Positions 14,455 through 35,873 of a stretch of 64,000 nt of DNA are shown one piece after another; positions within the stretch are counted from its first letter, which is position 1, and each line of letters starts with the position of its first letter. The translations under genes were made by a program, and so were the position numbers. The notes beneath the pieces were generated by a model. The model did not search any database and was not told the DNA's origin. It saw only the letters and a list, made by a program, of their open reading frames with translations. The stretch spans positions 544,001-608,000 of the forward strand of contig CAWCNY010000003.1 in the NCBI GenBank assembly GCA_963797095.1, written 5' to 3'. The stretch comes from an uncultured Chloroflexia bacterium (GTDB taxonomy: Bacteria; Chloroflexota; Chloroflexia; QHBQ01; JADMIH01).

Positions 14455-15279
14455 ATGAGAAGTGAGACGGGGCTGCTACGCACTTACCTGAACTGGATAC
14501 CAATACTCATGTTCCATGAGGTAGTGCTGGATGGAACCGATCCCATACCTCCATACGCAGTTTCTCAGGCTCAACTCCGCACAATTTTACATGATTTCGC
14601 CAGGCGAGGTTATACGTCGGGCACACTAGATCAGGTTGTAGGTGGTCCAGTCGATGACAGAAAGAAACAAGATACGGACGACGTAACCAATAAACCAAGA
14701 AAGCAGATAGTGCTCACGTTTGATGATGGCACCTCTGATTTTCTAGAAAATGCCCTGCCCGTATTGCAAGAATTCAGGTTTACTGCCACCATATTTGCAA
14801 TCGCCGGTATGGTGGGCGGAAAACGCGAGTGGAATAGTCTGCCAGGTCAAGCTCCTCTAACTCCCGTGCCGCTTATGAGCATTGCAGATTTGCGAGCATT
14901 GCGCGATAAGGGTTTCACTATAGGCTCCCACACAATTTCCCACCCGCGCCTTACTGACTTGAACATCGAACAAGCAGAAAAAGAAGTCGCAAATTCGCGA
15001 GCAATGTTAGTAAATATGCTGGGAGAACCGGTACGTTGGTTCGCATATCCTTACCTTGCTGCGAATGAAGTTACACGTAATCTGGTGAGGGCTGCAGGGT
15101 TTGTAGGAGCATGCGGTGGGCCTAATCAAAAGCATTCCAGATTCTATTTGAATAGGTTAGATGCTTCTTACTACAAGATCCCCCAACTACGCATACGCTG
15201 TAACGGTCTGTTCCATATGACACGCCAGATGCTCCGTCAGGCGCGGCATAGTGTAAGTGGAACTCCTACGCTGACTTAG
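14455..15279 (+). CDS. Polysaccharide deacetylase (CE4/NodB)
   Basis: PILMFH, LTFDDG, GSHTISH, FAYPY. Confidence 0.9.
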   Translation: MRSETGLLRTYLNWIPILMFHEVVLDGTDPIPPYAVSQAQLRTILHDFARRGYTSGTLDQVVGGPVDDRKKQDTDDVTNKPRKQIVLTFDDGTSDFLENALPVLQEFRFTATIFAIAGMVGGKREWNSLPGQAPLTPVPLMSIADLRALRDKGFTIGSHTISHPRLTDLNIEQAEKEVANSRAMLVNMLGEPVRWFAYPYLAANEVTRNLVRAAGFVGACGGPNQKHSRFYLNRLDASYYKIPQLRIRCNGLFHMTRQMLRQARHSVSGTPTLT

Positions 15280-15682
15280 CATCTGAGCAGCTAAACGGAA
15301 TCCTCCTCTTACATGCAGAGCACATAACTAGAGCCTTCTTGTTATTTCGACAAGACATGATTCTGACCTAGCCCCGAGAATCTAGTCCAGCACCAATGAG
15401 AGTTCCCGGTAAAATAGCACAATCAGAAAGGAGAACTCAAGATGAAAAGGGGCCAGTTTGTTTCTGATAATGCTCTATCTTTGCAGATTTTAGAACTGGC
15501 CCGTCAAGCGGCGAATAGGTCTGTTTCTGCTAATGTAAAAGGGAGCCATTCGATGAAATCTTGACAGTCAAAAAGGGAGCCACTTAGCTCTCTCTTTGCT
15601 ATCGTTGGGACAAGGCAAAGATGTTGCCTTTCGGTTACTCGGCTAGACCGTTAGACCGCAAACGATACGATAGCAAAGAGAG

Positions 15683-17377
15683 GTGGAGATGATTACCGTG
15701 GAACAACACGAAGCCATCCGCCGCGCCTTCTACCTCGAACACAAGAGTGTCAGGCAGATCGCACGAGAACAAAGGCACTCCCGCAAGACTGTTGACAAAG
15801 CCATTGCCCAAGCCCAAGCCCAGGCTCAGGACCCATCCCAGTCCCAATTCTACCAACCGTACCCTTACCCAACTTACCGGCGCACCAAACCTAGACCCGC
15901 TCCGGTGTTCGGCTCTTTCCAGACCCGTGTCGACGAACTCCTACAGCAAAACGACCGTCTCCCACGCAAACAACGCTACACCGCTCGCAAGATCTTTGAA
16001 CTTTTGGTCAAGGAAGGCTACCAGGGTAGCAAGTCTCGCGTGCGATTGCACGTGAGCAGATATCGCAAAGCCCATCACGCACCACCCCTGTTCATACCAC
16101 TAGAGTTCGAGCCTGGGAAGGACGCCCAGGTTGACTGGGGTGAAGCTGTTGCCGTCATCGGTGGCGAGCGCCAAACCGTGCAGTTGTTCATCATGCGTCT
16201 GAACTACTCAAGGCGATCCTTCGTGATGGCCTACCCCTCGCAGAAACAAGAAGCCTTCTTTGCCGGTCATGTGGCAGCTTTCCAGCACTTTGGTGGAGTT
16301 CCCCAACGTATCAGCTACGACAACCTGGCCTCGGCGGTGGATCCGGTTGCCTCTTTCAGCTCGGTGCGCCTCCTGATCGAAGGACGAGTACGACGAGAGC
16401 AGAGAGCATTCGTAGCCTTTCGTAGTCATTACCTGTTCGAGAGCCACTTCTGCACGCCTGGACAAGGGCATGAGAAGGGAGGTGTTGAACACAGCGTAGG
16501 GTTTAGCCGCCGCAACTTCCTGGTACCTATCCCAGATGTGGCCTCATTTGAAGCATTGAACATCTTTCTTCTGAGCGAGTGCCTGCGAGATGATCAGCGC
16601 CGGGTTGCGCGCCAACCCACCACCATCAAAGAAGCCTGGGAGCAGGAGCTACCTCATCTGCGTCCTCTACCTTCCTACCAATATGAATGTTGCGTGACGA
16701 GCACGGCACATCTCACTCCATACAGCCAGGTGATCTTTGAGACCAATCGCTACTCGGTGCCCGTCGAGAGAGCAAGGCGAGAAGTGATCGTCAAGGCTTA
16801 CCCTTTCCATGTGGACATATTCGACCCCAATCCCAACCCCAATCCCAACGATGGCCAGCCACGTAATCAATCGCATGACCAGCCCGGCCGCTCCGGCCTA
16901 CCAGGATTGCTTGCCCGTCATCCCCGCTGCTACGAGCGAGAGCAGGATATCTTCGAGCCACTGCATTACCTGCCTTTGCTCGCTCAGCGGCCAGGGGCAT
17001 TCGATTATGCCAAACCATTGCGCCGGTGGCGAGCCAAATGGCCACCTACATATGAGAAGGCGTTGGAACTGTTACGGGAGAAGTGGCCGGAAGGCAGAGG
17101 AGTGAAGGAGTTTGTCCGCATCTTGCAACTTCATCAGGATTATCCCGCTGTGCTTGTGGAGCGAGCAGTTGGGCAGGCTCTTTCGTATGGGTGTGTTCAT
17201 TTTGATGGAGTTACCCATTGTTTGAGGCAACTCACCACGCCTGAAACAGAGCTGACCATGCTTGCAGGTCTTGATCTGGTAGGGCTGGCCGATCACCCAC
17301 ACCTGCAAGCCATTGGCAAAATCGGCAGCCAGCCCATCGACTTACGTCGTTATGAGCAACTGCTTCAAGGAGGATGA
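15683..17377 (+). CDS. istA: IS21 transposase IstA
   Basis: AQVDWG, YDN, EKGGVE DDE motifs; NRYSVP. Confidence 0.95.
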   Translation: MEMITVEQHEAIRRAFYLEHKSVRQIAREQRHSRKTVDKAIAQAQAQAQDPSQSQFYQPYPYPTYRRTKPRPAPVFGSFQTRVDELLQQNDRLPRKQRYTARKIFELLVKEGYQGSKSRVRLHVSRYRKAHHAPPLFIPLEFEPGKDAQVDWGEAVAVIGGERQTVQLFIMRLNYSRRSFVMAYPSQKQEAFFAGHVAAFQHFGGVPQRISYDNLASAVDPVASFSSVRLLIEGRVRREQRAFVAFRSHYLFESHFCTPGQGHEKGGVEHSVGFSRRNFLVPIPDVASFEALNIFLLSECLRDDQRRVARQPTTIKEAWEQELPHLRPLPSYQYECCVTSTAHLTPYSQVIFETNRYSVPVERARREVIVKAYPFHVDIFDPNPNPNPNDGQPRNQSHDQPGRSGLPGLLARHPRCYEREQDIFEPLHYLPLLAQRPGAFDYAKPLRRWRAKWPPTYEKALELLREKWPEGRGVKEFVRILQLHQDYPAVLVERAVGQALSYGCVHFDGVTHCLRQLTTPETELTMLAGLDLVGLADHPHLQAIGKIGSQPIDLRRYEQLLQGG

Positions 17378-17378
17378 A

Positions 17379-18440
17379 TTGGAGAAAGAGAGGGAGAGAA
17401 CGGAGAGGACGCAGACCGTGAACACGGCGAATACGAACACGGTAAAGCCAGCAAGGGCAGCAAGGGCGACAGAACATCACATGTTGCTGGAAAGCTATCT
17501 ACGCCAGTTACGATTGCCCAGCTTCGTGCAACACTACCAGAAGTTGGCTCAAGATGCCGCACAGACCAACCTCAGCTATGAACGTTTTCTGTTAGCTCTG
17601 GCTGAAGGAGAGGTAGGCCAACGAGAAGTGCATCGAGTGGAACGCTCTATCGCCTCCGCCAAATTCCCGGTGCTCAAAGAGCTTGCTGACTTCGATTTCA
17701 GTGTCGTGCAGGGTTTAGCCAAGACGAGGGTACTTGAACTGGCTCAGGGTGGGTACATTCAGAGGGCAGAGCCGATCCTTTTGGTTGGCAATCCAGGGCT
17801 TGGCAAGACCCATATTGCCACAAGTCTTGCCCTTGCGGCTTGCCGTCAGGGCCATCATGTGCGCTTCTACAACGTAGCAGGCTTAATCAATGATATGATC
17901 CAGGCACAACAGGAGCTGCGATTGTCCCGTTTCATGACACAGATGTGCAAGCAGCAGGTGATTGTGCTGGACGAGCTAGGCTTCATACCATTTACAGCGG
18001 CGGGTGCGCAGTTGCTCTTCCAGTTCTGTTCGACCCTTTACGAGAGAGTGGCAATCATCATAACTACGAACCTGCGATTTGGAGATTGGAACAGTGTGTT
18101 AGGAGATGAGCGAATGACGGCTGCACTTTTGGACCGGCTCACGCACAAAGCACACATTCTGGAGTTTGTTGGAGAGTCGTTTCGTTTTCGCCAGCGTCTT
18201 CAACAGCAACAGGTGCAGGGGCAGGGGCAGGGGCGAAGTGAAAGAACAGGTGATGGTGCGAACGGGAATTTCGGGTACGGTTCTATTCAGAGTCTGGAGA
18301 GCCGAGAGATGGAAGGAGGGGAGGAAGACGAGGGGGCAGAAGCGGGGGAGATCGGGGAGAGCGGGGAGAGAAACGGGGAGAGCGGGGAGACAGAGGAAGC
18401 AGAACCGGCGCAAATGGCAAGCATCGCTGATCGGCCTTAG
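17379..18440 (+). CDS. istB: IS21 helper ATPase IstB with acidic C-terminal tail
   Basis: GNPGLGKT, LDELGF, ITTN, LLDRL, GESFR; TTG after AAGGAGG (ORF track start 17313). Confidence 0.95.
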   Translation: MEKERERTERTQTVNTANTNTVKPARAARATEHHMLLESYLRQLRLPSFVQHYQKLAQDAAQTNLSYERFLLALAEGEVGQREVHRVERSIASAKFPVLKELADFDFSVVQGLAKTRVLELAQGGYIQRAEPILLVGNPGLGKTHIATSLALAACRQGHHVRFYNVAGLINDMIQAQQELRLSRFMTQMCKQQVIVLDELGFIPFTAAGAQLLFQFCSTLYERVAIIITTNLRFGDWNSVLGDERMTAALLDRLTHKAHILEFVGESFRFRQRLQQQQVQGQGQGRSERTGDGANGNFGYGSIQSLESREMEGGEEDEGAEAGEIGESGERNGESGETEEAEPAQMASIADRP

Positions 18441-18481
18441 TTTTTTCGCAAAATTGACCTCAAAATGGCCGAAATTAAGTC

Positions 18482-18796
18482 ATGACCTCTAACTCCAGCT
18501 CTAACCCAAGCGCACTCCCAGCTAGCGAACCTGCCGTCGAACCGCCCTCGAAGGTGGTAACGACCTGCCGGGGCTACACACGAACCCTCCACGCTCAACT
18601 CGTTTCGTTCCGTTGCGAGTGGTGCAGCGAGGAGCGAGAGGTGTGGCAGTATCCAGGGGCAGCTCCGCGTTACTGCGATGGTTGCCGAAGGGAAGCCCAA
18701 AGGGCGATGAACACGGCGCGCCAGCGGGAGAAGCGCAAGCGAGACACTAGCCCCTACGGATGGCGACCACGGGTAGGACGGCCTCGCAAGCCTTGA
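18482..18796 (+). CDS. Small Cys4 zinc-finger-like basic protein (IS21 cargo)
   Basis: CEWC...YCDGC, basic helix, terminal GRPRK. Confidence 0.6.
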   Translation: MTSNSSSNPSALPASEPAVEPPSKVVTTCRGYTRTLHAQLVSFRCEWCSEEREVWQYPGAAPRYCDGCRREAQRAMNTARQREKRKRDTSPYGWRPRVGRPRKP

Positions 18797-18907
18797 AATC
18801 GGTGAACTGAGCGTATCCTAATTGGCACACCGAGCCTTATTGCGTCTGGGTAAATGAGCAGGATGGTCCCTGTGCCTACTCTTCCGATGCCAAATGGCTA
18901 TAACCAT

Positions 18908-19444
18908 TCACTGTGATATCTCTAGCTTCAATATCACCGGATCCGAGGGATCGCCGTCTATGTGGGCATACCAAATCTTGACTTGTAGCCCCTCTTTCAT
19001 TGGCCCCCCAAGTGTACTTACATGGTGAAAGCCAAGGCTCTCGCTGTATTCGGAGTAACTAAACTGGACCCCTTGCACCCTAAAGCTCTCGGCCTTGCCA
19101 CTGGCCGTACTGGTTAGGTCTATTACTTGCCCCTCAGCAACCTGTGCCTGATTAGTGGCGAGCAAATCGCTGCCAGTATGATATGCGGAAAGCGTCGACG
19201 CAAAGAGGAAGATCGCAACGCACAAACCAGCACAGATCAGGGTTACAGATCCAGATATCCTTATGGCACTAGGTACCTTGGGTATGCGGCTGCGATTGAC
19301 CAATATTCCAACACCGACGAACGCAACCGCCAGAGGGATTATTACAACCCACCATGCAAACGATTGTTGCGAAGCGTCAAAGACCGTTCGATAAGCCACG
19401 ACCGTGCTGCGGTCCATGTTGTTCCAAATGTCGACTAAAGTCAT
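18908..19444 (-). CDS. Hypothetical two-TM membrane protein (IS21 cargo)
   Basis: Two hydrophobic helices followed by a beta-rich domain. Confidence 0.65.
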   Translation of the reverse strand: MTLVDIWNNMDRSTVVAYRTVFDASQQSFAWWVVIIPLAVAFVGVGILVNRSRIPKVPSAIRISGSVTLICAGLCVAIFLFASTLSAYHTGSDLLATNQAQVAEGQVIDLTSTASGKAESFRVQGVQFSYSEYSESLGFHHVSTLGGPMKEGLQVKIWYAHIDGDPSDPVILKLEISQ

Positions 19445-19582
19445 GTCCGTGATGTCCCCACTAGACTTGCGATTTCCGTGTGGCCCCCTTTTCGATTATC
19501 AAATGGCTCCCTTTTTAATTATCAATATTTTCGTCGGGGAGGAGAAGTGGCTCCCTTTTTGGTTATCAAATGGCTCCCTTTT

Positions 19583-21079
19583 CTATTGACAAAAACATAG
19601 GTCATACAGATGCTCCTGAGCAACACCCGCCACAAACTGCTTATGCAGCCAATCCAGCAAGTGCCGCCGATGCACTCGCTGCATTTCTCGGCGCGCATCC
19701 CCGATGGTCACACGAACATGTTCAGTCTCGGTCGTGGTGGCCTGCAAACGGGCACGCTCCTCGTCCAAGAGCAGGTACGCCGCCAACACCAACGTCCAGA
19801 ACCGCTCGATAGCCGGGGCGCTCATCACTTGGTAGTGGTCAAGCCCCATCAACTCCTTGCAGTCGGCAAACAGCACCTCGATGTCCCAGCGTGCCGCTAC
19901 ATATTGCAGCAACTGCTCCACACTTGCCCCCAAGTCACTCGATGCCCAGTATCTGGTCTCGGACACAGGAGCACCCAGGCTGTGCCTCACTACCAGCACC
20001 TGGCACTTGTACAGCTTACGCACCATTGTGGTAATCGCATGCGCGTACACAGTGCTCACCTCCCCTTTGGCATCGGCATCGCGACCGCAACCGAGTTCGC
20101 TTCTGGGCCAGCGTACCAGCACGTAATCGGCCTCGCTCAAGCCCGCCACATATTCCGGCAGAGGCTGCCAACACCAGTCTGCAGCACTGGCGGCACTGGC
20201 GGCACTGGCGGCACTGGCGGCACTGGCGGCACTGGCGGCACTGGCGGCACTGGCGGCACTGGCGGCACTGGCGGCACTCGTACCGCCGACAAGCTGCTCT
20301 ACTCGGATGGAGCGATTGGCTTTCAGCCCACTGGTAATATGGAAGGCTCGCTGCCGAGCCGCCTTCCATACCGCCTTGCACCCAAACCAACTGTCCACCA
20401 GCACATGGGTGTCGGTCCCTTCCACCGGCTCGAAACTCTCAATCTGCTCCACCAGCAGGTCAACCTTGCTCTTGAAGGGCACACCCTCTCGCTCACAGAC
20501 CTCTCGCTGCCGATACAGACAAGGAGCCTGGGGACAGCACCTATCCAACGTAGGCAACACATACAGGGTGGTCAACATGTTGTGCCCTTGCACCGGGTGC
20601 CCCACCGTCGAGGAGAAGTGGCGGCCTATCCCAGCCATCTTGCGGCCTTTGGGCTTGTGCATGGTGGAGTCGTCTCCAATCAAGTAACCGGTCACAGAGG
20701 TTACACGAGCAGGAAGGCGACCCTTACGACCCCGACCGGTGTAGCGTCGGTGGTGACTACGCAAGGTGGCACGCTCTTGGGCTACCTGGGGGGCAAGTTG
20801 TGCTCGGAAACGGGCACACCAGGCAGCCACAACAGCCTGCCCTTCCCAAGGAGCGCGGCTCAAGAAGCGGCTCAGGCCACAGTAAGCGCGAGCGCGGGTG
20901 CGTACTCCGCCTCCGCACACAGCACGGTGCAGTCCACACAGGGTACGAGCTTCCATGCACAACAGCAAGGCCAGCAGTACGGTAACAAAGTACTGGAATT
21001 GAGGCTTGCTGAAGCAGTGACGGAAGGTCTGGGCGAAGTAGCGCACGCTCCCATCGGCGCATATAATGGGGGTAGGCAT
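19583..21079 (-). CDS. IS701-like DDE transposase
   Basis: IGDDS, LVDSWF, RWDIEVLF..K..GL; ATG 21079 after GAGGAGG; native end FAA* lies at 15504-15515. Confidence 0.85.
   Translation of the reverse strand: MPTPIICADGSVRYFAQTFRHCFSKPQFQYFVTVLLALLLCMEARTLCGLHRAVCGGGVRTRARAYCGLSRFLSRAPWEGQAVVAAWCARFRAQLAPQVAQERATLRSHHRRYTGRGRKGRLPARVTSVTGYLIGDDSTMHKPKGRKMAGIGRHFSSTVGHPVQGHNMLTTLYVLPTLDRCCPQAPCLYRQREVCEREGVPFKSKVDLLVEQIESFEPVEGTDTHVLVDSWFGCKAVWKAARQRAFHITSGLKANRSIRVEQLVGGTSAASAASAASAASAASAASAASAASAASAASAADWCWQPLPEYVAGLSEADYVLVRWPRSELGCGRDADAKGEVSTVYAHAITTMVRKLYKCQVLVVRHSLGAPVSETRYWASSDLGASVEQLLQYVAARWDIEVLFADCKELMGLDHYQVMSAPAIERFWTLVLAAYLLLDEERARLQATTTETEHVRVTIGDARREMQRVHRRHLLDWLHKQFVAGVAQEHLYDLCFCQ
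20184..20278. repeat. 9-bp tandem repeat (GCACTGGCG)x10.5 encoding poly-SAA inside the transposase
   Basis: Direct reading. Confidence 0.95.
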
Positions 21080-21194
21080 AGTGGTCCTCCTCGGGTAAGG
21101 ATTGGTGTTCGCAACCCTCTTATACCCGATAGGCCCTATGCCTTCAATCATTCACTTTGAAATGTGCAAAGATAGAGTGATAATGTAAAAGGGG

Positions 21195-22596
21195 TGTACT
21201 GCGCCCTTGGTGTTGGACACAAATGGGGCTTAGGTTAGTCAATAGCCCCGACCGGCTGGGCTGACCGGCTAGCGGCGAGTGCGTCCTGGCTCCCCACGCC
21301 ACCACCCAGATATACCTGGTTGCAGCTCTGGTTGCGCTGAACCCACTGCGCCTCGAACTCAGCAGGGGTCATGTACCCCAGCGATGAGTGTATCCGCTTG
21401 TGCTGGTACACCTCGTCCAGGAACCGCCCGATCTGCTGGTAAGCATCATTGTAGTCGATGTATTCCGATAAATCTACCTCCTCTTCCTTGATGGTTCGAA
21501 TCACCCGTTCCGCGTACCCGTTCTGCCACGCCTGCCCCACCTCAGCCATGCTGATGGCAACTCCCGCTCCCACCAGCATCTGCACGTAGCCACCCGCCGC
21601 GTACTGTACTCCCTGGTCGGAGTGGTGGATTTGAGGAGTGCCAACGAGCAGTGCCCGCCGCAGTGCCGTTTCAGTAAGGTCAGCATCCAGCCACCGCGAG
21701 AGGTGCCACCCACGGATTGAGCGAGTGAACACATCCATGACCACAGCCAAGTAGACAAACTCGCTCCCGAGGCGCACGTAGGTGATGTCCCCGACCCAAA
21801 GCTGCTCTGGTCGCACCACCGCCAGCCCCTCTACCAGGTTGGGGTAGCGTGGGAACGAGTGGGCACTATTGGTCGTGCGCTTCTTACGGCGAGGGATGCG
21901 TCCTTGCAGGCCCATCTCACGCATCAACCGCCGCACTCGCTTGTGGTTGGCCCGAAGCTCGTACCCACCCGCTTCCTTGCTTCTGCGTAGCTGATGGGTG
22001 ATGCGCCTGTATCCATAGGTAGACCAGCGGTCAGCAACCGCTTGGATGGCCTCTTTTACCTCTTGGTCTGGCGCACTCTGGACCCGAGACGTGGTCTGAG
22101 CTTGAGTGTAATGGTAGTAGCTGCTGCGAGGGTAGTCCAGCAGACGGCAAACCAGCTGTACCGGGTAGCTCTCCTCTTGAACGAGCTTCACGACTGCCCG
22201 CCTTTTCTGCTCAGCTCTGCATTCAAGATCGCAGACCCCTTTTTTAGGATTTCCATCTCCAGAGTCATGCGTCCAACCAGCCTCTCCAACTCGGCTATCC
22301 GTTCTGCTTGTGGGTCGGCCACTCGTCCGGAAGGGCCGTTCTCGAAGAGCTTGGGGGCACTTGCCACGAAATCGGCTTTCCATCTGGACAGCAATTCGGG
22401 CTTGATGGAGTACTCGCGAGAGGCCTGAGCTACACTCTTGGCTCCTGTGAGGATTTCCAGCACTACCTGCGCTTTGAACTCGGCGCTGAAACTCCGCCGA
22501 TTTTGCATCTGAGGCATCTTGTTGCGCTCCTTTCCGTTCTTGGACCATCATACGACATTGATTATCCGCTGTGTCCAAGTCCCGGGGCGCACTACA
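21195..22596 (-). mobile_element. IS3-family element
   Basis: 26-bp imperfect IRs TGTACTGCGCCC..TTGGACAC / GTGTCCAA..GGGCGCACTACA; flanks differ (GGGG vs GAGG). Confidence 0.9.
21235..22517 (-). CDS. IS3 transposase OrfAB (orfA 22188-22517; -1 frameshift at A6G 22239-22245)
   Basis: RRSFSAEFK HTH; WVGDITY, HHSDQGVQY, NGYAER, RIHSSLGY. Confidence 0.9.
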
Positions 22597-23563
22597 GAGG
22601 TAACTCCATCGAGTGGAGAGTTAGCCCTCTCCCAGTGGATTCTGTCCCACTGTCCCCACGTAAAAGGGTCTCTGACCCCGGCCACGCCAGTAGTAAGCAA
22701 TGAACCTGGTGGAATGCAGGCCACGCAAGCGCCGCTGACTGGTAGCCTAAACCTGGTCATGCGCAAGGGGAAGTCAGATAGGTCAACGCAAGTGAACTGC
22801 CATCTAAAGCTTCGTGATTCGGCAAGAGTGCAATAAGGCTGAGACACTCTCACCAAAATGGTAAGTGGGTGGTCGAGCAAATCCAGTCGCTGCTCGACGA
22901 CAGGACACACTCCCACCGGAGCATAGGCAGGACCTTCCCTGGACGCATCTCAACACCTGGAACTACGGTAAGCCCGTTGAGTTCTCCACTTGGCATGCGG
23001 AGTAAGCCGACCGTAAGGAAGGCAGAATTACTCATCGGGTAAAAGACGCTGGAGCAAGCGAAGGCCCGCAGTAATGCGCGGGATAGGGGTTCTTTTCAAG
23101 ATTTGCCCCACGCCGAAAGGCGGCTGACTTCCAGCTAGCTTCTGACGATAGAACTAATGTGAAGGAACCAAACTGACGTGCAAGATAGAGTCACTTCTGA
23201 CATCGGAACGCCAGGATCTGCTTTCAGCGAGATACCCAAACAAGGCACTCCCATTGATTGGGACGCTATTGACTGGGCTATTGTTAACAATCGGGTCAGG
23301 AACCTGAGACAAAGGATTTATCGTGCGACCGCAGCGGGTCAGTGGAATCAGGTGCGCAGCCTGAAGAAGCTGATGATGCGCAGCTACGCAAACCTGCTAC
23401 TGTCAACGCGAAGAGTGACCATGGACAATCACGGCAAGAAAACGGCTGGCATTGATGGTCAGACTGCTCTTACCGCCAAAACCAGGACGCAAGTGATCCG
23501 CGAGATGCCGGAGTACAAACCACGACAGGTCAAACCAGCCCGGCGGATATATATACCTAAGGC

Positions 23564-25039: not shown

Positions 25040-25574
25040 ACCTAAGGCCAATGGCAAACAAAGGCCGATCGGCATCCAAACTCTCAAAGACCGCATCGCG
25101 CAGGCAGTTATCAAGAACGCACTGGAACCAAGTTGGGAGGCCCAATTCGAGCCGAACAGCTATGGCTTTCGTCCGGGCCGCAATTGTCATGATGCCATCG
25201 TGCAATGCTGGAACTGGTTTAAGGGCGCAAACGGACACAGCTTTGTGCTCGACGCCGATATCCGGGGTGCGTTCGACAATATCAGTCAGGAATATATCCT
25301 CGACGCCATTGGCCAAACGCCGGGACGCGAGTGGATAGAAGCATGGCTGAAGGCAGGCTATGTAGAGGCCGAGATCTTCCACGCCACTGAGAGTGGTACC
25401 TCACAAGGCTCTGTCGTCTCACCATTACTCGCCAACATTGCCTTGGACGGTATGGAACGCTGGCTTGGTCAATGGACTAACCAGCGAACTTACACCAACA
25501 AGCGCGGCAAACAGGTGGGATGTGTACATAAACAGGCTAATCCACGCTACGGTTACATCCGTTTTGCGGACGAC

Positions 25575-28081
25575 GTGCGCCACATAACCAAGATAATGGA
25601 TTCCTTTCGCAGAAAGGGGAGGTACGGAAGACAAGACCTCCGGGTCAACAGCTTACCTGGAAGCGAAAGCTGAAGGGAACAGTAGCATGCTGCTGAAGCG
25701 GAAGATACTTGAAGATGCTTAGGGTATCGTTCTGCAAGACCCGCGTGATATGGTGAGAGCCAAACTGCCCAAACCTTAGTCTCCAGCGATGCAAGCGAAT
25801 ATTCTCCGACCATAGCATCTATTGGCGGAGCCATTGTGATAGGGCGGTTAAGTCGTCGCCGCCTGAACCTTTCGCACAATGGGCGGTCAGGAACGACCTG
25901 ACTCAAGGAGACGGAACAGGCACCTACGTCACGCTCGATACGTCCATAACCTTGGGAATGTGGGATCGCCTACAGGGCGCGAGCCCCATGGCGACGGAGC
26001 CACCATATTACTCCGAGGACGGGAAAGCCGTCTACATGGCAACATAGCAACATAGCAACATAGCAACATGGCAATGCCTTGCAAAGAAGATAAGTTGCCA
26101 ATGGGGAAGGGTGGCAGGTGTTGTGAGACCCAATCAGGGAGGTACGCGAGATGCGAAACGCCGAAACTGTGCTGGGGATCATCCATGAACGCGGCAAGAA
26201 GGGCTTGCCATTGGAGGACGTGTACCGGCAACTGTTCAACCCAGACTTGTATCTACTCGCTTATGGGCATATCTACCGCAATAACGGGGCTATGACACCT
26301 GGCGTAACAGACGAAACTGTGGATGGGATGTCGCTGGCCAAGATCGAAGCCATCATCGGTGCACTACGACAGGAACGATATCGATGGACGCCAGTACGAC
26401 GCGTGTACATCGCCAAGAGAAACTCGACCAAAAGGCGTGGGCTAGGAATCCCTTCTTGGTCGGATAAGCTGTTGCAAGAAGTGATACGCCTTATCCTACA
26501 GGCATATTACGAACCGCAATTCAGCCCGGCCTCACACGGCTTTCGCCCTCAACGTGGGTGTCACACCGCGCTAAGCGAGATCCAACATAAGTGGGTAGGC
26601 ACAAAATGGTGGGTGGAAGGCGATATCAGAGCGTGCTTCGACACTCTGGACCACACAGTCCTGATATCAATCCTACGCGAGAAGATCTTCGACAATCGCT
26701 TCTTACGCTTGATCGAACGCCTCCTGCAAGCCGGATACCTGGAAGAATGGCGTTATCACTGCACCCTGAGTGGAAGCCCACAAGGTGCCGTGCTCAGCCC
26801 CGTTCTTTCGAACATCTACATGGACAAGTTGGACCAGTTTGTCGAGAAGACACTGCTTCCCAGGTACACGTGCGGAAACCGTCGTAGACTTAATCCTGAA
26901 TGGCAACGGCGACAACAGCTTGCTCGGCAATTGAAGGAACATGGTGACAAGAAAGAGGCCTGCAAAATGCGTCGTCTGATGCAGCAGGTCCCCTCCTTGG
27001 ACACACACGACCCCAACTACCGACGCCTGCGTTACTGTCGTTACGCCGATGATTGGCTACTCGGTTTCAGCGGCCCACGAGAAGAAGCCCAGGAAATCAA
27101 GTCTGCAATCCGGGACTTCTTACGAGAGGATCTCAAGTTGGAACTCTCTGAGGAAAAGACGCTGATTACCCATGCGCGGACCAAAGCTGCGCATTTCCTG
27201 GGCTATGATATCGTGGTGCTCAATAACGACCACAAGCTGGATCGCCGAGGTCACCGCAGCATCAACGGCGGGATCGGACTGAAAGTACCAGCAGAGGTTG
27301 TGAAAGTGAAATGCAAACGCTATCTGCGCCACGCCAAACCGATCCACCGACCGGAACTTGAACACGATGCTGTCTTCAGTATCGTGGCACAATACCAGCA
27401 GGAGTACCGGGGTCTCGTGGAATACTATCGACTGGCCTTCAACCTTCACAAACTCAACCAACTGAAATGGCTAATGGAACGCTCCCTGGCACAGACACTG
27501 GCCTCAAAACTCAAGATCAGTGTCCGATCTATCTACAAGCGATACCACACCTTAGTACGGACAGATCAGGGAACACGTGCAATCCTCGAAGTCAGGGTAG
27601 AGCGTGATGAGGGCGATCGTGATAAGGGCGATAAAGGAAGAAAACCGTTGATAGCGCGGTGGGGCGGTATTTCACTCGCACGCAACTCCAAGGCAATACT
27701 GAACGACGCGCCCCTACAAATCAGCGGACCGAGAGCGGAACTCGAACGACGCCTCTTGGCACAAGCTTGTGAGCTTTGTGGTTCACGAGAAAACATCGAG
27801 GTGCATCATGTACGAGCACTCAAAGATCTACGGACCAAAGGACGCGCAGAACCGCCTTTCTGGATGCAGGTGATGGCAGCTCGCAAGCGCAAGACGCTGG
27901 TGGTCTGTCGCGAGTGCCACGATAGCATTCATGCTGGTCGCAACACTCAAACTGCTGCCGTGAAAGCCGCGAGAAGGAAAACACTGGAGAGCCGGGTACT
28001 CCGAAAGGCGTAAGCCCGGTTCGGGGAGAGGCGGACAGAAAAGAGCTGCGCAAGCAGCACCTCGCTGGCCGCCCACTCCAC
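25575..28081 (+). mobile_element. Group II intron (ML/IIA-like), apparently intact, nested in the outer intron
   Basis: GTGCG 5' end at 25575, domain V 27989-28022, ends CCAC at 28081; removal restores FADD|FII. Confidence 0.93.
26151..28013 (+). CDS. ltrA: Group II intron reverse transcriptase/maturase with HNH domain
   Basis: SHGFRP, GSPQG, RYADD, FLGY, CELC..HHV..CRECH. Confidence 0.93.
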   Translation: MRNAETVLGIIHERGKKGLPLEDVYRQLFNPDLYLLAYGHIYRNNGAMTPGVTDETVDGMSLAKIEAIIGALRQERYRWTPVRRVYIAKRNSTKRRGLGIPSWSDKLLQEVIRLILQAYYEPQFSPASHGFRPQRGCHTALSEIQHKWVGTKWWVEGDIRACFDTLDHTVLISILREKIFDNRFLRLIERLLQAGYLEEWRYHCTLSGSPQGAVLSPVLSNIYMDKLDQFVEKTLLPRYTCGNRRRLNPEWQRRQQLARQLKEHGDKKEACKMRRLMQQVPSLDTHDPNYRRLRYCRYADDWLLGFSGPREEAQEIKSAIRDFLREDLKLELSEEKTLITHARTKAAHFLGYDIVVLNNDHKLDRRGHRSINGGIGLKVPAEVVKVKCKRYLRHAKPIHRPELEHDAVFSIVAQYQQEYRGLVEYYRLAFNLHKLNQLKWLMERSLAQTLASKLKISVRSIYKRYHTLVRTDQGTRAILEVRVERDEGDRDKGDKGRKPLIARWGGISLARNSKAILNDAPLQISGPRAELERRLLAQACELCGSRENIEVHHVRALKDLRTKGRAEPPFWMQVMAARKRKTLVVCRECHDSIHAGRNTQTAAVKAARRKTLESRVLRKA

Positions 28082-29606
28082 TTCATCATAACAGCAGCCA
28101 CGAGGGAGGAAATCGAGGCTATTCAACCTCATGTGGTAGCCTGGCTGGCCGAGCGCGGACTCGAACTCAACACCGAGAAAACCCATATCCGCAACATTGC
28201 AGATGGTTTCGACTTCTTGGGTTTCAACATCCGTCGCTACGGCACGAAATGCCTAATCAAGCCCCAGAAGGAAAAGGTGCAGACCAAACTGCGTGAAATC
28301 AAGCAGTGGCTGGTCACGCATCCGAACGTTGGTCCCGACGACGTGATTGACGTGCTAAACCCGATTCTGAGGGGTTGGGCGAACTACTACAAGCATGGGG
28401 TGAGCAAGAAGATGTTCGCCACCTTCAGCCACCGGTTAGTGTTACTACTTATCCGATGGGCGAGACGGCGACACCCGGGTAAGGGTCCACGGTGGGTACT
28501 TCCGCGTTACTTCACGAGAGTAGGCGGGAACAACTGGGTCTTCTACGCCAAGACAAAGAACCGGCACGGTAAGATGACGAAGACCTATCTGTATCGGATA
28601 GGGCAGACGCCAATTACTCGCCACATCAAAGTCAAAGGCGCAGCATCCCCAGACGACCCAACGCTGGGCGAATACTGGGCGGCACGGCAGACAAGATATG
28701 GCAAAAGCTATTTTGCTGTGGGGTCAAAGCTATACCGGGTAGCCGCAAAGCAGCACTGGCGATGTCCCCTGTGCCGAATGCACTTGTTCAATGAAGAGCG
28801 TATTCATATTCACCATGAGCAATCGGTAGCAGACGGTGGAACAGATGAGGAGGAAAACCTCAGCATCTTACACGAAGTCTGCCACCGCGCAACATTTGGT
28901 AGAAGACCCGCAGTAAAGTCGGTGGAAGCCTGAGCCGGATGATCGGCGACGGTCTTGTCCGGTTCTGTGAGGAGGGAGGCGGGGCGACCCGCTCTCCCTT
29001 ACTCGATAAGTACCTGCTCTGCCTTGAACTGACCGACCCTGGTTTTGACCATACCGTGTTCAGCGAGTTTCGCACTCGCCTGTTGGATCACAACGCTGAG
29101 CGCCAACTGTTCGACACCATGCTTGCACTCGCTCAAGACCGGGGTCTGCTCAAAGCCGGTGGCCGTCAGCGCAGCGACTTAACTCATGTCCTAAGTGCTG
29201 CACGCACCCTCAACCGGCTGGAATGTGTTACCGAAACCCTACGTCACGCCCTCAATGTGCTAGCGACCTCCGTCCCGCAGTGGCTACGAGCACACACTAC
29301 ACCAGAGTGGGTGGAGCGCTATGGCTTACGTGCCAGTGAATTTCGGCTGCCCAAAGGCGATGCCAAACGGCTGGCGTGGGTTGAGCAAGTTGGGCGCGAT
29401 GGGATGGCCTTGCTCGATGCCATCTACGCAGCAGACCCGGCAGACCCGGCAGACCCGGCAAATGGTCCAACTCCAGCCTCTTTGCGCGAGGTGCGGGGTC
29501 TTGAGTAGGTGCAGATACTGCGCCGGGTTTGGATCCAGAAGTTCTGGATGAACCAGGATCAATTGCAATGGCGCGACAACGACAACACCCCACCAAGCGG
29601 CACTTA

Positions 29607-30893
29607 GGAGCCTTCCGCAGATAAGGTGATCAAAGTAGCTGAGGCTTGATAGTGTAGTTCCATTCCCCGTGGAAGGCATCTTTGAACAGATTGAGGGCAG
29701 CCACTTGCTCATCAGTGACCTTGATCCCTGTCGGATATGCATGGCTGTCCTTGAGCGCCCTCACCACTAACCCCTCTTGGGTGGTAGTATGCGAGATCAG
29801 TTCCAACACCACTTCCATAGACGTGAGCGGGGTGGCCCGCCAATTTATTGATATGTACGAAAACACTCGATGCTCTATCTTGTTCCATTTGCTGGTAGCA
29901 GGGGGATAATGCGCCACCGTGATGGCCAGTTGTTCTTCATTGGCCAGTGCCTGTAGCTTTTGCTTCCACAGGCGGTTTCTCACCCCATTGGAGCCTCCTC
30001 CATCAGCGGTGATCAGCAGTTCCTTTTTGCCTGGATAGAGGGTTTTGCCCCACTTCTGCCACCACCTGCGGATACTCTCCACCGCAAACTCAGCCGTATC
30101 ATGGTCAATACCCACATTCACAAACCCCACGTTCACAAACCCCACGTTATGCACCAGGTCATATATCCCGTAGGGGATGGCCTTGCCATCGGCCAGGGAA
30201 ACAAAGTCATACACCGATACCACCCTCTCTTCCCCTTGAGCCTGCCATTCCCGTCCGTTGTTCCTGAACTGGCCTATCAACTCCTTCTTCTTGCAGTCAA
30301 CGGAGATGATAGGAGCGCCTTTGTGTTCAAACTCTTTGCACCGAGCGTTGATGTGAGTAAATTGCTCATCCCGGTCAGGGTGCGATTGGCCTTCGATATT
30401 CTTCTTGTTGACGCGCAGAGAAAATCTCTGCTCGTGCAGCAATTCGGCCAGTGCTGACTTCTTGATGTGATGCCCTTTGCCTTCAAGGGCTTGCACCAGG
30501 TGTGCCAACGATTTGGTGGTCCATCGTACAAGGCTCATCGGGTCACCCTTGGGTTCCAATTCCCTCTCCAGATCGGGGAGCAGGGTGGGATCGGTCTGTG
30601 CAAGCTTTTTCATGCCCCCACCAGGCTTGCGGATGCGTTCTCCTGGTTGATAGTTGTCCCCTGCCTCCCGTTCTTTCAGACCCCGCTTGACCGTGTTGAG
30701 GGAGACCCCTGCCTCCCGAGCTACTGTGCTGGTGCTTCCTCTGCGTTGAGCCTCGGCTGCCAGGTACTGTCTCCACTGCTTCTCATTTAGCAGTGTCCGA
30801 AGCTGTTGGTATTCTTGTTCGGTCGAGAGCTTTTCCATACTCTCTATCTTCGCATATCTCCCTCTCTATGTCAACTAATTCTCGGAAGGCTCC
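29607..30893 (-). mobile_element. ISAzo13-family element
   Basis: IRs GGAGCCTTCCG / CGGAAGGCTCC; 3-bp TSD TTA at 29604-29606 and 30894-30896. Confidence 0.92.
29630..30838 (-). CDS. ISAzo13-family transposase
   Basis: GDPMS..RWT, ISVDCKKKELIG, ADGGGSNG, SKWNKIEHR, FHGEWNYTI. Confidence 0.93.
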   Translation of the reverse strand: MEKLSTEQEYQQLRTLLNEKQWRQYLAAEAQRRGSTSTVAREAGVSLNTVKRGLKEREAGDNYQPGERIRKPGGGMKKLAQTDPTLLPDLERELEPKGDPMSLVRWTTKSLAHLVQALEGKGHHIKKSALAELLHEQRFSLRVNKKNIEGQSHPDRDEQFTHINARCKEFEHKGAPIISVDCKKKELIGQFRNNGREWQAQGEERVVSVYDFVSLADGKAIPYGIYDLVHNVGFVNVGFVNVGIDHDTAEFAVESIRRWWQKWGKTLYPGKKELLITADGGGSNGVRNRLWKQKLQALANEEQLAITVAHYPPATSKWNKIEHRVFSYISINWRATPLTSMEVVLELISHTTTQEGLVVRALKDSHAYPTGIKVTDEQVAALNLFKDAFHGEWNYTIKPQLL

Positions 30894-31913
30894 TTACATC
30901 AACTCGCCTTATGACATTGATATACGCTACGCTCACAAAGGCTCCATCACCTGGACCGGCTTCAAGGTGCATCTGACCGAGACTTGTGACGATGAAGGAC
31001 CAAACTTGATTACCAACGTTGAAACCACTTCGGCCTCAGTAGCGGATGACGCTGTAACCGGGTCAATTCATGCTTCTTTGGCTGAGCACCAGTTGCTACC
31101 CGACAAGCATGTCGCCGACACGGGGTTCGTCAATTCGAAGCTGTTCGTCGAGAGTACACAAGAATACGGCATCACCCGGATCGGTCCGATGCGCTCTGAC
31201 AACAATTGGCAGGCTAAAGAAGGAGGCGGTTTCTCGGCACAGGACTTTGTGATTGATTGGGCGCAACAACGAGCCATCTGTCCACAAGGCCAAGTCAGCA
31301 GCAGTTGGACCAAAGCACTAGACCGTGTGAAGAACGAGGTCATCAAGATCAAGTTTGGCAAGCACGAATGTGGGGTCTGTCCGAGCGTAGCAAGATGCAC
31401 GCGATCAGACCCGCCGCGACGAAGCATCAGTATCAGACCGCAAGCGCAGCACGAGGCATTGGTGGCTGGACGGCGACATGAACAAAGTGAGGAATTCAAG
31501 CAAGAATATGCGCGACGGGCGGGGGTAGAAGGGACAATTGCGCAAGGGGTGCGGTCGTGCGGGCTGCGTGGTTCGCGCTACTATGGATTGGCAAAGAACC
31601 ATCTACAACACCTGATGATAGCGGCGGGAATAAACCTGATAAGGATTGTACGCTGGCTCATGGGCGAGGAGAAGGCCAAAACTCCTGTGTCTGCGTTCGC
31701 ACGTTTGTATCAGCAGGCCGCATGATCACTATTCGCCACCAATATCAAAGTGCGGATGAACCCCTTTCCCCTTTTTCGTTATCAAATGGCTCCCTTTTCT
31801 ATTGACAAAATCACCAGTTCAGCGAAGAGCAGATAATTGGGATCCTGCGGGAAGCCGAGGCAGGTCAGAAAGTGGCCGATGTCTGCCGCAAGTACGGAGT
31901 AAGCCAGAGCACC

Positions 31914-33006
31914 TTCCAGAGGTGGCGGCCCATCCTCTGTAAGGGCACTGCGTACCGCCAGACAGTAACCAAGGATCGCCTTTCCCAAGTCCTGGGCCTC
32001 ATGGTCTTTGTCTTTTTGCCGTTGCACAGCGTGTGAGGAGTTGTCGAGATGCGCTTGACCCTTCAGTTTGTCCTCGACACTGCGCTCTATGGCTCGTACC
32101 CCGCGCACTTGCTTCTTCAGTTCTTTCTTGGCGTGCCGGTCGGCCTCATATATGGGTCGAGTAGCTTCCCGCAGATAATGGAACTGGCACAACTGGTGGG
32201 GCACTTTGGGCAGAGCCCCTTGTACAGCCAGCCGGATTGACCGCTCACCGTCCGAGATTACCCCACAGATGGATATGGGTTGTTCTCCTTCCCCTTCTCC
32301 TGGCTCCTCAAACGAGGCAAGTGCTTGTTGCACCTCGAAAAGCAGGGCCATCAGATCAGGATGAGCAGCACTCAACAAGGGGCGAGCCAACAGGATCTCA
32401 CCAGACAGGCAATCGCGTATCACCCACAGCACTTCGTGTCCCATGTCCGGCTGCAGGCCGTCAATGGCCAGCACTACTCTGCCTTGTTCCCTTAGCCGCA
32501 CCTTGAGCCGGTCATGGTCGGCCAGGTGCAGAGCCACGAGTTCCTCGTACCTCTCTATCAGATAGGTAACGGTGCGCTCAGCTATGCTCACTCCTCTCCC
32601 CAGCAGTTCCTTGTGGATCTCGGGCACTGAGCGATGCTGGGAGTAGCGCAAGGTGCCGATTAGGGTAATGATGTCCAGTCCGAACTCCCCTTGAGGCAGA
32701 GCCAGTGCTCCTTCCTCTTCTGGTCGATAAGGTCGGTGGTAAAGTGGGCAGTTCGGGTTATGGCAGCGGCGTATCTTGAGTGTCACTCTACACAGACCAT
32801 GCAGTGTTACCACAGTGCGGAAATTGTGGTAGCCCATCCAAAGGGAGCCACCGCAAGCCCAACAGATATCACTCAGAGGCTGCAATGTCAGGTGCGAGGC
32901 AGCTGCTGGTCGGCATTGTCTTCTTGTCATGGGTAGCCTCCCAACTGAAGATCTCAACCTCCTTGCCAGCATCACTCGTGCCCTCGCTCAAGCCAGCTTT
33001 GCCGTT
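31914..33006 (-). mobile_element. Truncated ISNCY-like element (transposase from 32930, 3' part deleted)
   Basis: AIDGLQPD.GHEVLWV.RD, ISDG, QLCQFHYLRE; candidate end AACGGCAAAGCTGG next to CTAG; ORF fuses into antisense IS3 orfA. Confidence 0.7.
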
Positions 33007-33016
33007 CTAGAAAAAA

Positions 33017-33940
33017 ATGGTAACGCCCGATGTTGAGCGTGAGGCGGTGGTCCACCTCACAACCCAATACCAGGTATCTCAGCGTCGGGCGTGCCGAGTA
33101 GTCGGGATAAACAGAGCTACAGCCCGCTATCGCCCTCAGCGTAAAGCCGAGCTGGTGCACAAAGAGGCGGGTGTCCAAAGTCGGTTGGTGGAGTTGGCCA
33201 AAGAGCGGCCTCGCTTCGGCTACCGCCGGTTGGGCGTGCTGTTACGGCGGGAAGGCATAGTAGCCAACCACAAGCAGGTGCATCGTCTGTACAAGCTCAA
33301 CGAGTTGGCTTTACGCAGGAAGAGCAGAAAGCGATTGGCTTCCGTCAGCAGGGTACCTCTTGCTCAACCGAGCAAGCCCAACCAGGTGTGGGCAATGGAT
33401 TTCGTGCATGACACGCTGGCAAGCGGGCGCAAATTCAGGACGCTGAACGTAGTGGACGTGTACACCAGGGAGTGCCGGGTTATCGAGGTAGACACCAGCC
33501 TGGGTGGTCAGCGGGTAGTGCGGGTGTTGGATCGGTTGCGGGAGGAGCACGGAGTGCCCGAGCGGATCATGATGGACAATGGGCCGGAGTTCACAGGTAA
33601 GGCGCTGGACGCCTGGGCCTATTCTCAGAAGGTAGAATTGGATTTCATTCGACCAGGTAAACCGATGGAGAACGGGTACGTGGAAAGCTTCAATGGCCGC
33701 TTCAGGGACGAGTGCCTTAACAGCCACTGGTTCTTGAGCATGGAGGACGCCAGGCAAATAATCGAGGAGTGGAGAGTAGACTACAACGAGGTCCGTCCTC
33801 ACAGCTCGCTTGGGCACCTAACCCCTGCAGATTTTGCCAGGCGCAGCATCTTTTTCGACAGGATTTCTCTCACTGCTGTTGGATGTAACAATGGGGGCAG
33901 GTCAGGAGTGAAGGAGATGGGAGGTGGCAGCGTGAGGTGA
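33017..33940 (+). CDS. IS3 (IS407 group) OrfB integrase-core transposase
   Basis: A7 slippery site 33011-33017; WAMDF, DNGPEF, NGYVESFNG, RPHSSLG; reads through IRR. Confidence 0.9.
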   Translation: MVTPDVEREAVVHLTTQYQVSQRRACRVVGINRATARYRPQRKAELVHKEAGVQSRLVELAKERPRFGYRRLGVLLRREGIVANHKQVHRLYKLNELALRRKSRKRLASVSRVPLAQPSKPNQVWAMDFVHDTLASGRKFRTLNVVDVYTRECRVIEVDTSLGGQRVVRVLDRLREEHGVPERIMMDNGPEFTGKALDAWAYSQKVELDFIRPGKPMENGYVESFNGRFRDECLNSHWFLSMEDARQIIEEWRVDYNEVRPHSSLGHLTPADFARRSIFFDRISLTAVGCNNGGRSGVKEMGGGSVR

Positions 33941-34076
33941 GGGGTAGACAGCGTGCCAGCGGGGTTCACCGCCCAGAAACGTCAATTACGCAGTCTCGAA
34001 AACGGTGGTACGTTACCGAGCGAGACTTGACAAAGTACTTTCAGCCACTATTCTTCTATGCGGGAATTCTTTATTT

Positions 34077-35828: not shown

Positions 35829-35873
35829 CACAATTTCCTCGTTGATACCGATACCCATACCCAATCCGGGAAT

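Follow-up and report, generated by a model that had tools for sequence, protein, structure and literature searches.

Results

A block of nested mobile elements in one intergenic space

The window analysed here, 64,000 nucleotides (nt) long, is the stretch 544001-608000 of contig C3 (1.15 Mb) from the genome of an uncultured Chloroflexia bacterium (G000; 6.02 Mb in 8 contigs). At window positions 15364-33904 it carries an 18.5-kb block of mobile elements that lie one inside another, within an intergenic space of 18,797 bp in which the only unique residual DNA is 84 bp to the left of the block and 172 bp to its right (256 bp in all). We count eleven elements of nine kinds, nested up to five deep: insertion sequences (IS) of several families and two group II introns, the inner of which sits in the reverse transcriptase (RT) gene of the outer. 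The block is very probably a genuine chromosomal pile-up that was built stepwise and in place in a short gap between convergent genes. The preliminary description of this DNA had spoken of ten elements, although its own list holds eleven; the order of nesting that it gave is essentially right (IS3 > IS21 relic > {IS701 > IS21; IS3b; IS1182 with its guests}, plus a fragment of a 1.86-kb IS), and so is the order inside IS1182 (outer intron > IS4 and inner intron; ISAzo13). The elements and the features within them are as follows, a slash within a peptide marking the point of insertion.

15364-33904, plus strand: level 1, outermost IS3-family element (NCBIfam IS3, 243.7 bits against a cut-off of 160)
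33011-33017, plus strand: A AAA AAA frameshift heptamer of the outermost IS3; the orfA frame continues with TGG TAA, the -1 frame with orfB
15459-31813, plus strand: level 2, IS21 relic (the 'shell'), duplication CCAGTT, between codons 6 and 7 of the outer IS3 orfA
31917-33010, minus strand: level 2, 1,094-bp fragment between orfA and orfB, 100% identical to part of a 1,864-bp IS
31917-31928, no strand: 12-nt microhomology CAGAGGTGGCGG, common to the outer IS3 orfA (where it reads FQRWR) and the 1.86-kb IS
15473-21177, minus strand: level 3, probable IS701-family element, duplication TGATAATG, 14 nt inside the IS21 relic
21195-22596, minus strand: level 3, IS3b, an intact IS3-family element of 1,402 bp (NCBIfam IS3, 274.3 bits) with TG...CA ends
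29008-31746, plus strand: level 3, IS1182-family remnant, own sequence 1,449 nt (29008-29606 and 30897-31746)
15522-19597, plus strand: level 4, intact IS21-family element of 4,076 bp, duplication TAGGTC, 49 nt from the IS701 end
15683-17377 and 17313-18440: istA and istB of the intact IS21 (NCBIfam IS21, 277.8 bits; IstB, 265.6 bits)
18482-18796, plus strand: passenger open reading frame (ORF) of the intact IS21, 104 amino acids (aa), zinc-ribbon-like
18908-19444, minus strand: passenger ORF of the intact IS21, a 178-aa membrane protein with no Pfam family passing
22597-29007, plus strand: level 4, outer group II intron, 2,419 nt of own sequence, first 27 nt missing
29607-30893, minus strand: level 4, intact ISAzo13-family element of 1,287 bp, duplication TTA, in the IS1182 gene (PSGT/YINSP)
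23564-25039, minus strand: level 5, IS4-family element of 1,476 bp, duplication ACCTAAGGC, in the outer RT gene (IPKA/NGKQ)
25575-28081, plus strand: level 5, inner group II intron of 2,507 nt, directly after the (F or Y)ADD codons of the outer RT gene

Boundaries, duplications and copies elsewhere in the genome

Boundaries were checked independently by comparing 15001-34500 with the bacterium's own genome (blastn), and families were assigned with Pfam, NCBIfam and Rfam; over the block, Rfam at E <= 0.1 returned nothing besides two matches to intron domains V-VI. For seven of the eleven elements, the genome contains near-identical copies with exactly the same ends, and since the copies of these seven inner elements are spread over six other contigs, the inner elements were active in this lineage. 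The five target-site duplications named in the preliminary description are all exact, some of its coordinates being shifted by 1-3 nt, and they are strictly nested, with spans from 1.3 to 16.4 kb. They are listed below with the chance of an exact match at one fixed pair of sites (our own arithmetic).

CCAGTT, 15453-58 and 31814-19: IS21 relic, chance match 2e-4
TGATAATG, 15465-72 and 21178-85: IS701, chance match 2e-5
TAGGTC, 15516-21 and 19598-603: young (intact) IS21, chance match 2e-4
ACCTAAGGC, 23555-63 and 25040-48: IS4, chance match 4e-6
TTA, 29604-06 and 30894-96: ISAzo13, chance match 2e-2

When the inner elements are excised in silico, the host reading frames rejoin across the breaks as had been proposed from the letters alone, and the restored IS701 matches its intact copies. 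The expectation that excision would restore every host fails, because two deletions, described below, have reshaped the nest. The guests all have copies in the genome at 98.8-100% identity, and the genome contains no close copy of three of the hosts, namely the outer IS3, the IS21 relic and this IS1182, a pattern that fits older outer elements and a recent burst of the guests. The ranking by age is imperfect: IS4, 99.5% identical to its only other copy, lies inside a pair of introns that is 99.9% identical to its own. The two values do not conflict, since an insertion is not dated by how closely it matches a surviving copy.

The outermost IS3 and the IS21 relic

About 1,086 nt of the outermost element's own sequence is left. 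It is bounded by inverted repeats (TGACCT...AGGTCA) that seem to resemble those of the IS407 subgroup, to which the preliminary description had assigned it, and its orfA starts at 15442 and its orfB occupies 33017-33940, with the Pfam domains rve, rve_3 and HTH_21. An rve-bearing orfB joined to orfA by a -1 frameshift heptamer, the combination that marks the IS3 family, is thus present. By blastn and tblastn this is the sole copy in the genome.

The IS21 element that entered orfA survives as a relic, with 23 nt of its left end (15459-72 and 21186-94) and 67 nt of its right end (31747-31813). Compared with the intact IS21, 21 of 23 positions agree on the left and 24 of the 25 terminal nt on the right, and excision of the relic rejoins the orfA of the outer IS3 (MKRGQF/SEEQII). 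We also considered that the relic might come from a short non-autonomous IS21 derivative; this found no support, as the genome holds no IS21-type ends beyond those of five full copies and the relic.

IS701, the young IS21 and IS3b

The IS701 element (1,623 nt of own sequence, 15473-15521 and 19604-21177) has inverted repeats of 18 nt that are 94% identical and an exact 8-bp duplication. IS701 is its best NCBIfam model (E 2.4e-40), at 139 bits against a cut-off of 150, the match being split by a tandem array within the gene. This array, at 20163-20297, is built of a 9-nt unit, GCGGCACTG, that encodes Ser-Ala-Ala on the coding strand. Three intact copies of the element elsewhere differ from the restored element by 1-2 mismatches and a 45-46-nt indel, the array being shorter by that length in the window, and in all three a single TAGGTC is read through, so that they are exact empty sites for the IS21 that interrupts IS701 here. 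Short in-frame repeats also occur in istA, istB, ISAzo13 and IS1182.

The young IS21 has istA, istB, repeated terminal motifs and 6-bp duplications, as its family assignment demands. Its four other copies are 99.4-99.8% identical with identical termini, and three of the four have a 6-bp duplication of their own. The two passenger ORFs lie in a segment of about 1.1 kb (18441-19521) that separates istB from the right end and brings the element to 4.08 kb; as this segment is present in all 5 genome copies, it travels with the element. The copy on contig C5 (167305-172698), which keeps a 6-bp duplication of its own, CTTGAA, is split at the passenger region by a 1.3-kb insertion and thus provides a further case of nesting in this genome.

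IS3b has two other copies, 100% and 98.8% identical, and is separated from the left tip of the IS21 relic by 23 nt. It is flanked here by GGG and GAG, that is, by no target-site duplication; its copy on contig C3 has GCT on both sides.

A group II twintron inside an IS1182 transposase gene

The outer intron encodes an RT/maturase/HNH protein in three pieces (23178-23563, 25049-25574 and 28082-28933) with the Pfam domains RVT_N, RVT_1, GIIM and HNH, and matches Rfam RF00029 at 28930-29007 with 47.3 bits, the gathering score being 40. Copies on contigs C2 and C4 start with GTGCG and are preceded by an IS1182-type 5' exon that ends in ...RIDW. The inner intron starts with GTGCG, ends with AC, matches RF00029 at 27987-28081 (54.5 bits) and carries an intact gene for a 620-aa RT/maturase/HNH protein (26151-28013; Pfam RVT_1, Intron_maturas2 and an AI2M-like HNH). 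With domains V-VI, a GTGCG start (for the outer intron, in its C2 and C4 copies) and an RT gene each, both are predicted to be mobile group II introns. Excision of the inner intron rejoins FADD/FII in frame, and with IS4 taken out as well, the outer RT gene is open over 587 codons. The pair therefore constitutes a twintron, in which the inner intron lies wholly inside the outer one on the same strand and its removal restores the outer RT frame.

IS4 is assigned by NCBIfam with 161.5 bits against a cut-off of 115 and has inverted arms, as members of its family do; its one other copy is 99.5% identical and has a 9-bp duplication. The genome contains one full copy of the two-intron unit besides that of the window, on C2, and one fragment. 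The C2 twintron lacks IS4 and is an exact empty site for it, a 316-nt junction being identical, letter for letter, to the one obtained here by excision. Between the two twintrons, 2 of 964, 0 of 527, 1 of 2,506 and 0 of 926 nt differ, which amounts to 3 mismatches in 4,923 nt, in contrast to the adjoining IS1182 exon, which is only 66% identical at the DNA level, with 41% protein identity in the C-terminal part of the transposase. The outer intron lies at the conserved RIDW/KY codon junction of IS1182-family transposase genes. A near-identical composite at this junction in two distant IS1182 relatives argues for site-specific homing; and because the inner intron is also present in the C2 copy, a separate landing here is unnecessary. 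No solo copy of either intron was found in the genome at >=90% identity. The two introns thus probably arrived as one unit by site-specific homing.

A second twintron, at 114949-119350 of contig C3, contains, directly behind the RYADD codons in another RT gene, an intron 75% identical to the inner one. Contig C1 carries a composite copy of this second twintron that is truncated at its 5' end (492589-495760; 99.94% identical over 3,172 bp), as would be expected if a whole composite had been reverse-transcribed incompletely. The third such case comes from another species of the genus (G013, contig C155), where an intron again lies directly after YADD. Introns of the inner lineage, at >=75% identity, are therefore found after YADD codons in 3/3 separate contexts. 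More distant relatives (69-75% identity, in other Chloroflexota families) came from 13 other genomes, 14 with G000, among 401 Chloroflexota genomes searched, and 0/9 of those examined lie after YADD. This speaks against YADD homing as a phylum-wide habit, and the difference between close and distant relatives makes it a trait of a small sub-lineage. On contig C6 (301748-302175, minus strand), a relative of the inner intron with 70% identity has its GTGCG start directly after the codons ...LDWHSR; this context resembles the core of an IS3-type transposase and would mean that this group of introns also uses a mobile-element target of another kind.

The IS1182 remnant and ISAzo13

The IS1182 gene that hosts the twintron is itself incomplete. 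It matches NCBIfam IS1182 over profile positions 87-230 (81 bits) and 246-488 (180.6 bits), about 86 N-terminal positions being absent, and has an in-frame TAG at 29506-08. Its left end is gone, so neither a full transposase nor both repeats are present; 67 nt separate its right end from the tip of the IS21 relic on that side, the right inverted repeat having been placed by way of the C2 relative. The ISAzo13 element within it is intact (NCBIfam 530.8 bits against a cut-off of 200; Pfam PF07592, 416.8 bits), which places it in that family, and it has three other copies that are 99.6-99.9% identical.

Two deletions and a Mutator-like IS

Two odd junctions, neither of which had been recognized in the preliminary description, mark deletions that pruned the nest. 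At the first, IS3b sits exactly between the left end of the IS21 relic and nucleotide 28 of the outer intron. The window lacks the first 27 nt of this intron, its 5' exon and the left end of IS1182, the first two of which are present in the C2 and C4 copies. On the simplest reading, a deletion adjoining IS3b, or recombination between two copies of IS3b, would have cost IS21 its interior, IS1182 its 5' part and the intron its first 27 nt.

The second junction borders the piece between orfA and orfB, which had been called ISNCY-like and is a fragment of a 1,864-bp Mutator-like IS. Of this IS, the fragment retains the transposase gene and, at 33010, one inverted-repeat end; it is 770 bp short. 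The only other copy in the genome, which is complete, lies on contig C2 (489740-491603; locus L012, 2740-4603). Its 24-bp inverted repeats are perfect, it is flanked by a 7-bp T7 duplication, and besides the ORF for a Mutator-like transposase it contains one of 218 aa. The IS end in the window abuts the A7 heptamer at 33011-17, and the C2 copy is flanked by TTTTTTT on both sides; judged from these two sites, the 1.86-kb IS appears to have used the frameshift heptamer of the outer IS3 as its 7-bp target. The other border is no IS end: the window and the C2 copy share 12 nt there, beyond which their sequences diverge. We infer a deletion by way of the 12-nt microhomology that took 770 bp of the IS and ~130 bp of orfA.

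No Pfam or NCBIfam model passes for the transposase of this IS, the NCBIfam matches to IS66 and IS256 being weak, and its atlas neighbours are of Mutator/MULE type. All of the scored candidate homologues (8,000/8,000) have E <= 1e-5; their typical length is ~332 aa and some are named Mutator/MULE. The family is very large in metagenomes, and most of its members are unnamed.

Flanking genes and the site in related genomes

The block separates two gene clusters that face each other, with the following genes next to it.

13354-14433, plus strand: glycosyltransferase gene, upstream of the deacetylase gene
14455-15279, plus strand: polysaccharide deacetylase (Pfam PF01522, 99.3 bits), left flank, final gene of the plus-strand cluster
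34077-35864, minus strand: NicO/DsbD_2-type membrane protein (Pfam PF03824, PF13386), right flank
35874-37415, minus strand: Polysacc_synt flippase (Pfam PF01943), adjoining the NicO-like gene

An earlier proposal that the block fills a gap of ~250 bp between two convergent polysaccharide operons holds for the length and the orientation; the immediate neighbour on the right, however, is the NicO/DsbD_2-type gene, with the flippase gene second. Neither residual stretch (15280-15363 and 33905-34076) has a further match in the genome at a word size of 7, and the idea that they are relics of more repeats is therefore not supported. No integrase gene, attachment site or plasmid gene was found in or beside the block, and its G+C content (0.52-0.62, against 0.47-0.53 in the flanks) is set apart by no more than the differences between its elements.

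The empty site was sought in relatives by protein, their DNA being only 64-66% identical and over parts of genes only. Among the 26 genomes of the genus (a tally that includes G016, G021 and G022, which are flagged as unpublished and on which no claim depends), the deacetylase has matches in 15 at E <= 1e-20, at the level of an orthologue only in G041 (59% identity), G010 (51%) and G014 (57%); the NicO-like protein has matches in 23. In both congeners that have the two orthologues on one contig, these are convergent neighbours, separated by 16 bp (G041) and 32 bp (G010), and the flippase gene follows the NicO-like orthologue as it does in the window. The G014 locus, divided between two contig ends, is uninformative on the gap. 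The adjacency of the flanking orthologues in G041 and G010 indicates that the block is an insertion into a very short convergent gap. In G041 (contig C7; locus L009, 3213-5004), the NicO-like orthologue is read as two overlapping ORFs of 219 and 414 aa, which suggests a frameshift or a sequencing error.

Discussion

A stepwise history of the nest

We propose that the convergent gap would have acted as a safe landing site, in which insertions are harmless to the host and each arrival enlarges the target for later ones. An IS3-family element would have entered the gap first, followed by IS21 between codons 6 and 7 of its orfA. IS701 would then have landed 14 nt from one tip of IS21 and IS1182 67 nt from the other, after which a ready-made twintron may have homed to the RIDW/KY codons of the IS1182 transposase gene. 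ISAzo13 would next have entered IS1182, the young IS21 would have entered IS701, and IS4 the RT gene of the outer intron. A deletion linked to IS3b may then have taken the interior of IS21, the 5' part of IS1182 and the start of the intron; finally, the 1.86-kb Mutator-like IS would have inserted onto the A7 heptamer and been cut back, together with part of orfA, by the microhomology deletion. Boundaries, duplications, empty sites, copies elsewhere and the two odd junctions are observed; the order of sister events in this scheme is a likely reconstruction.

Four observations weigh against such a history. The outermost IS3 has no target-site duplication (ATTC on one side, GGAG on the other). 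The insertion of IS1182 into the IS21 relic is seen at a single junction, its left end being lost. The closest genomes compared belong to other species, with 51-67% protein identity in the flanking genes. Finally, when two soil-metagenome runs of one study, the sole public runs with any part of the stretch, which contained 8-9% of the sampled words, were compared over 14800-34400, their contigs were short and held single elements, bridged no junction of the nest and left the unique left flank uncovered. One of these contigs joins 23554 to 25040 and so has the IS4-free form of the intron that is also seen in the C2 twintron; others are >=99% identical to IS21, IS701, IS4, ISAzo13 and the inner intron (within 15454-33765), so the elements, or a close relative of the organism, occur in that soil. 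On the correctness of the assembly this result is neutral.

Alternative explanations

The nested order might be absent from the cell if repeats had been mis-joined by the assembler: seven of the elements have copies elsewhere at >=98.8% identity, which makes them error-prone for assemblers, and the metagenome contigs span none of the junctions. A mis-join would not, however, yield strictly nested, matching duplications over spans of 1.3 to 16.4 kb, nor host frames that rejoin exactly. The elements also differ privately from their copies (the shorter IS701 array, and mismatches of 0.2-0.6% in IS21), and they lie on a long contig of a genome in eight pieces in which repeats of 4 kb were resolved elsewhere. 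We regard an artefact of this kind as highly improbable. Import of most or all of the nest, assembled elsewhere and received in one step by recombination or within an oversized IS3, would account for an outermost IS3 that lacks a duplication and is the sole one of its kind, and for an IS21 relic and an IS1182 without close copies. Against it stand the near-identical copies of seven inner elements on six other contigs, a G+C content that does not separate the block from its flanks beyond the differences between elements, and the lack of any integrase gene, attachment site or plasmid gene in or beside it; import is accordingly improbable, if less so than misassembly. Stepwise growth in place therefore remains the reading that we prefer.

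A further question is what steered the insertions, as the nest could have grown in place mainly by targeted stacking, with the neutrality of the gap mattering little: introns would prefer conserved transposase and RT codons, the 1.86-kb IS runs of A7 or T7, and transposases the termini of resident ISs. The twintron lies at the homologous RIDW/KY site of two IS1182 relatives although the exon is only 66% identical, inner-lineage introns follow YADD in 3/3 contexts, both copies of the 1.86-kb IS (2/2) abut a 7-nt run of A or T, and four of the seven interpretable transposase-driven insertions lie less than 100 nt from a host terminus (95, 14, 67 and 49 nt). The A7 preference, on the other hand, comes from two sites only, the count of end-proximal insertions is small and was taken after deletion had removed host interiors, and the distant relatives of the inner intron follow YADD in none of nine cases. 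Moreover, IS4 and most copies of IS21, IS701 and ISAzo13 elsewhere are surrounded by unique DNA; of 14 other copies of these ISs, only 3 have a flank that is repeated at >=99% identity, three more having flanks with 68-81% paralogues (two on both sides, one on one side). That targeting of this kind built most of the nest thus seems rather unlikely. The opposite view, that each element simply landed in a previous one in a selection-neutral sink, finds no support in that form: against it stand the homing of the twintron, the A7/T7 sites, the four insertions close to a host terminus and the probable arrival of two introns as a composite. Twintron homing, the YADD introns and the A7 site indicate that the nest stems partly from targeting of elements by elements and not only from neutral drift.

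Repeats of >=300 bp and >=90% identity make up 4.9% of the genome, in 175 blocks, of which the nest locus is the largest, and nesting is common elsewhere in this genome. As the block represents 0.31% of the genome, about 0.5 of ~175 random insertions would be expected here, a rough estimate in that lethal insertions go unseen. The second largest repeat block, of 12 kb, lies at 77361-89425 of contig C3 and is made up of three segments that abut one another (6.1, 2.6 and 3.3 kb), each with a copy on contig C1 or C5 at >=99.9% identity; this block, too, may be a mobile-DNA cluster.

Comparison with known nested elements

In the adh1 region of maize, long terminal repeat (LTR) retrotransposons are nested between genes and the order of nesting gives their relative age; the successive nesting between genes is as here, in a eukaryote, with LTR retrotransposons and on a much larger scale. 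Four Wolbachia genomes contain 18 IS copies that are split by nested ISs (PMC3205602). As in the window, one IS landed in another and split the host copy, which is counted as a single old event; the Wolbachia splits are described as single-level (PMC3205602), in contrast to the eleven elements of nine kinds, five deep, with two deletions superimposed, that we describe. Pipelines for the detection of ISs allow for nesting (PMC4072520).

Nested group II introns are likewise known. Up to five nested introns are described in Methanosarcina, along with several bacterial twintrons outside housekeeping genes, and those of Methanosarcina acetivorans resemble ours in that an intron occupies the RT gene region of a second one with which it shares its orientation (review, PMC4424553). 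The same arrangement is reported for a twintron of Trichodesmium, in a paper that calls bacterial twintrons rare (PMC4649490). In Thermosynechococcus elongatus, TeI3 lies inside TeI4, again in the same orientation and in the RT gene region, splicing of the inner intron restores the outer gene, and some introns occupy a conserved site in an IS element, as the outer intron does here (PMC2882425). The T. elongatus inner introns have no ORF and lie between the first two ATGs, whereas ours encodes a full RT/maturase/HNH protein and lies directly after YADD; and there, identical inner introns in diverged outer ones point to independent insertions (PMC2882425). In our genome, by contrast, inner and outer introns are both near-identical between copies and have no solo copies, which fits movement as a composite. 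The parts of the twintron literature that we drew on contain no report of a homing site at YADD codons, which may already be in print. For a group II intron that lives in an IS, the precedent is RmInt1 in ISRm2011-2 of Sinorhizobium meliloti (PMC1802570), whose homing site likewise lies inside a transposase-bearing IS, so that it spreads with the IS and is harmless to the host; the host in the window differs in being of the IS1182 family and the guest in being a twintron.

A possible role for elements that prey on other elements

More tentatively, much of the nest might have been built by elements that prey on other mobile elements, and not by neutral drift. This proposal has three parts, and that all of them hold together is conceivable, though somewhat short of an even chance. 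A sub-lineage of protein-coding introns in this Chloroflexia genus would home to DNA that encodes YADD, the active-site motif of the RT, in other group II introns; the twintron would move as one composite retroelement between distant IS1182 transposase genes; and a widespread, unnamed Mutator-like IS would target 7-nt runs of A or T and so hit the frameshift heptamers of IS3 elements.

Bacterial genomes are thought to delete useless DNA fast, and deep piles of mobile DNA are accordingly expected to be rare, a deletion bias clearing them quickly. The locus is a real, unusually deep example of a known phenomenon, and it indicates that a bacterial chromosome is able to hold an 18.5-kb, five-level stack of mobile DNA. 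Two processes of pruning, IS-associated deletion and microhomology deletion, are on display in it. The stack is also a dated record, with outer elements that have no living copies and inner ones with copies at >=99.4% identity, and it supplies natural pairs of empty and filled sites for seven active elements of an uncultured Chloroflexia lineage. Two target rules emerge that can be put to the test, that of an intron that inserts after YADD codons and that of an IS that inserts on A7 or T7.

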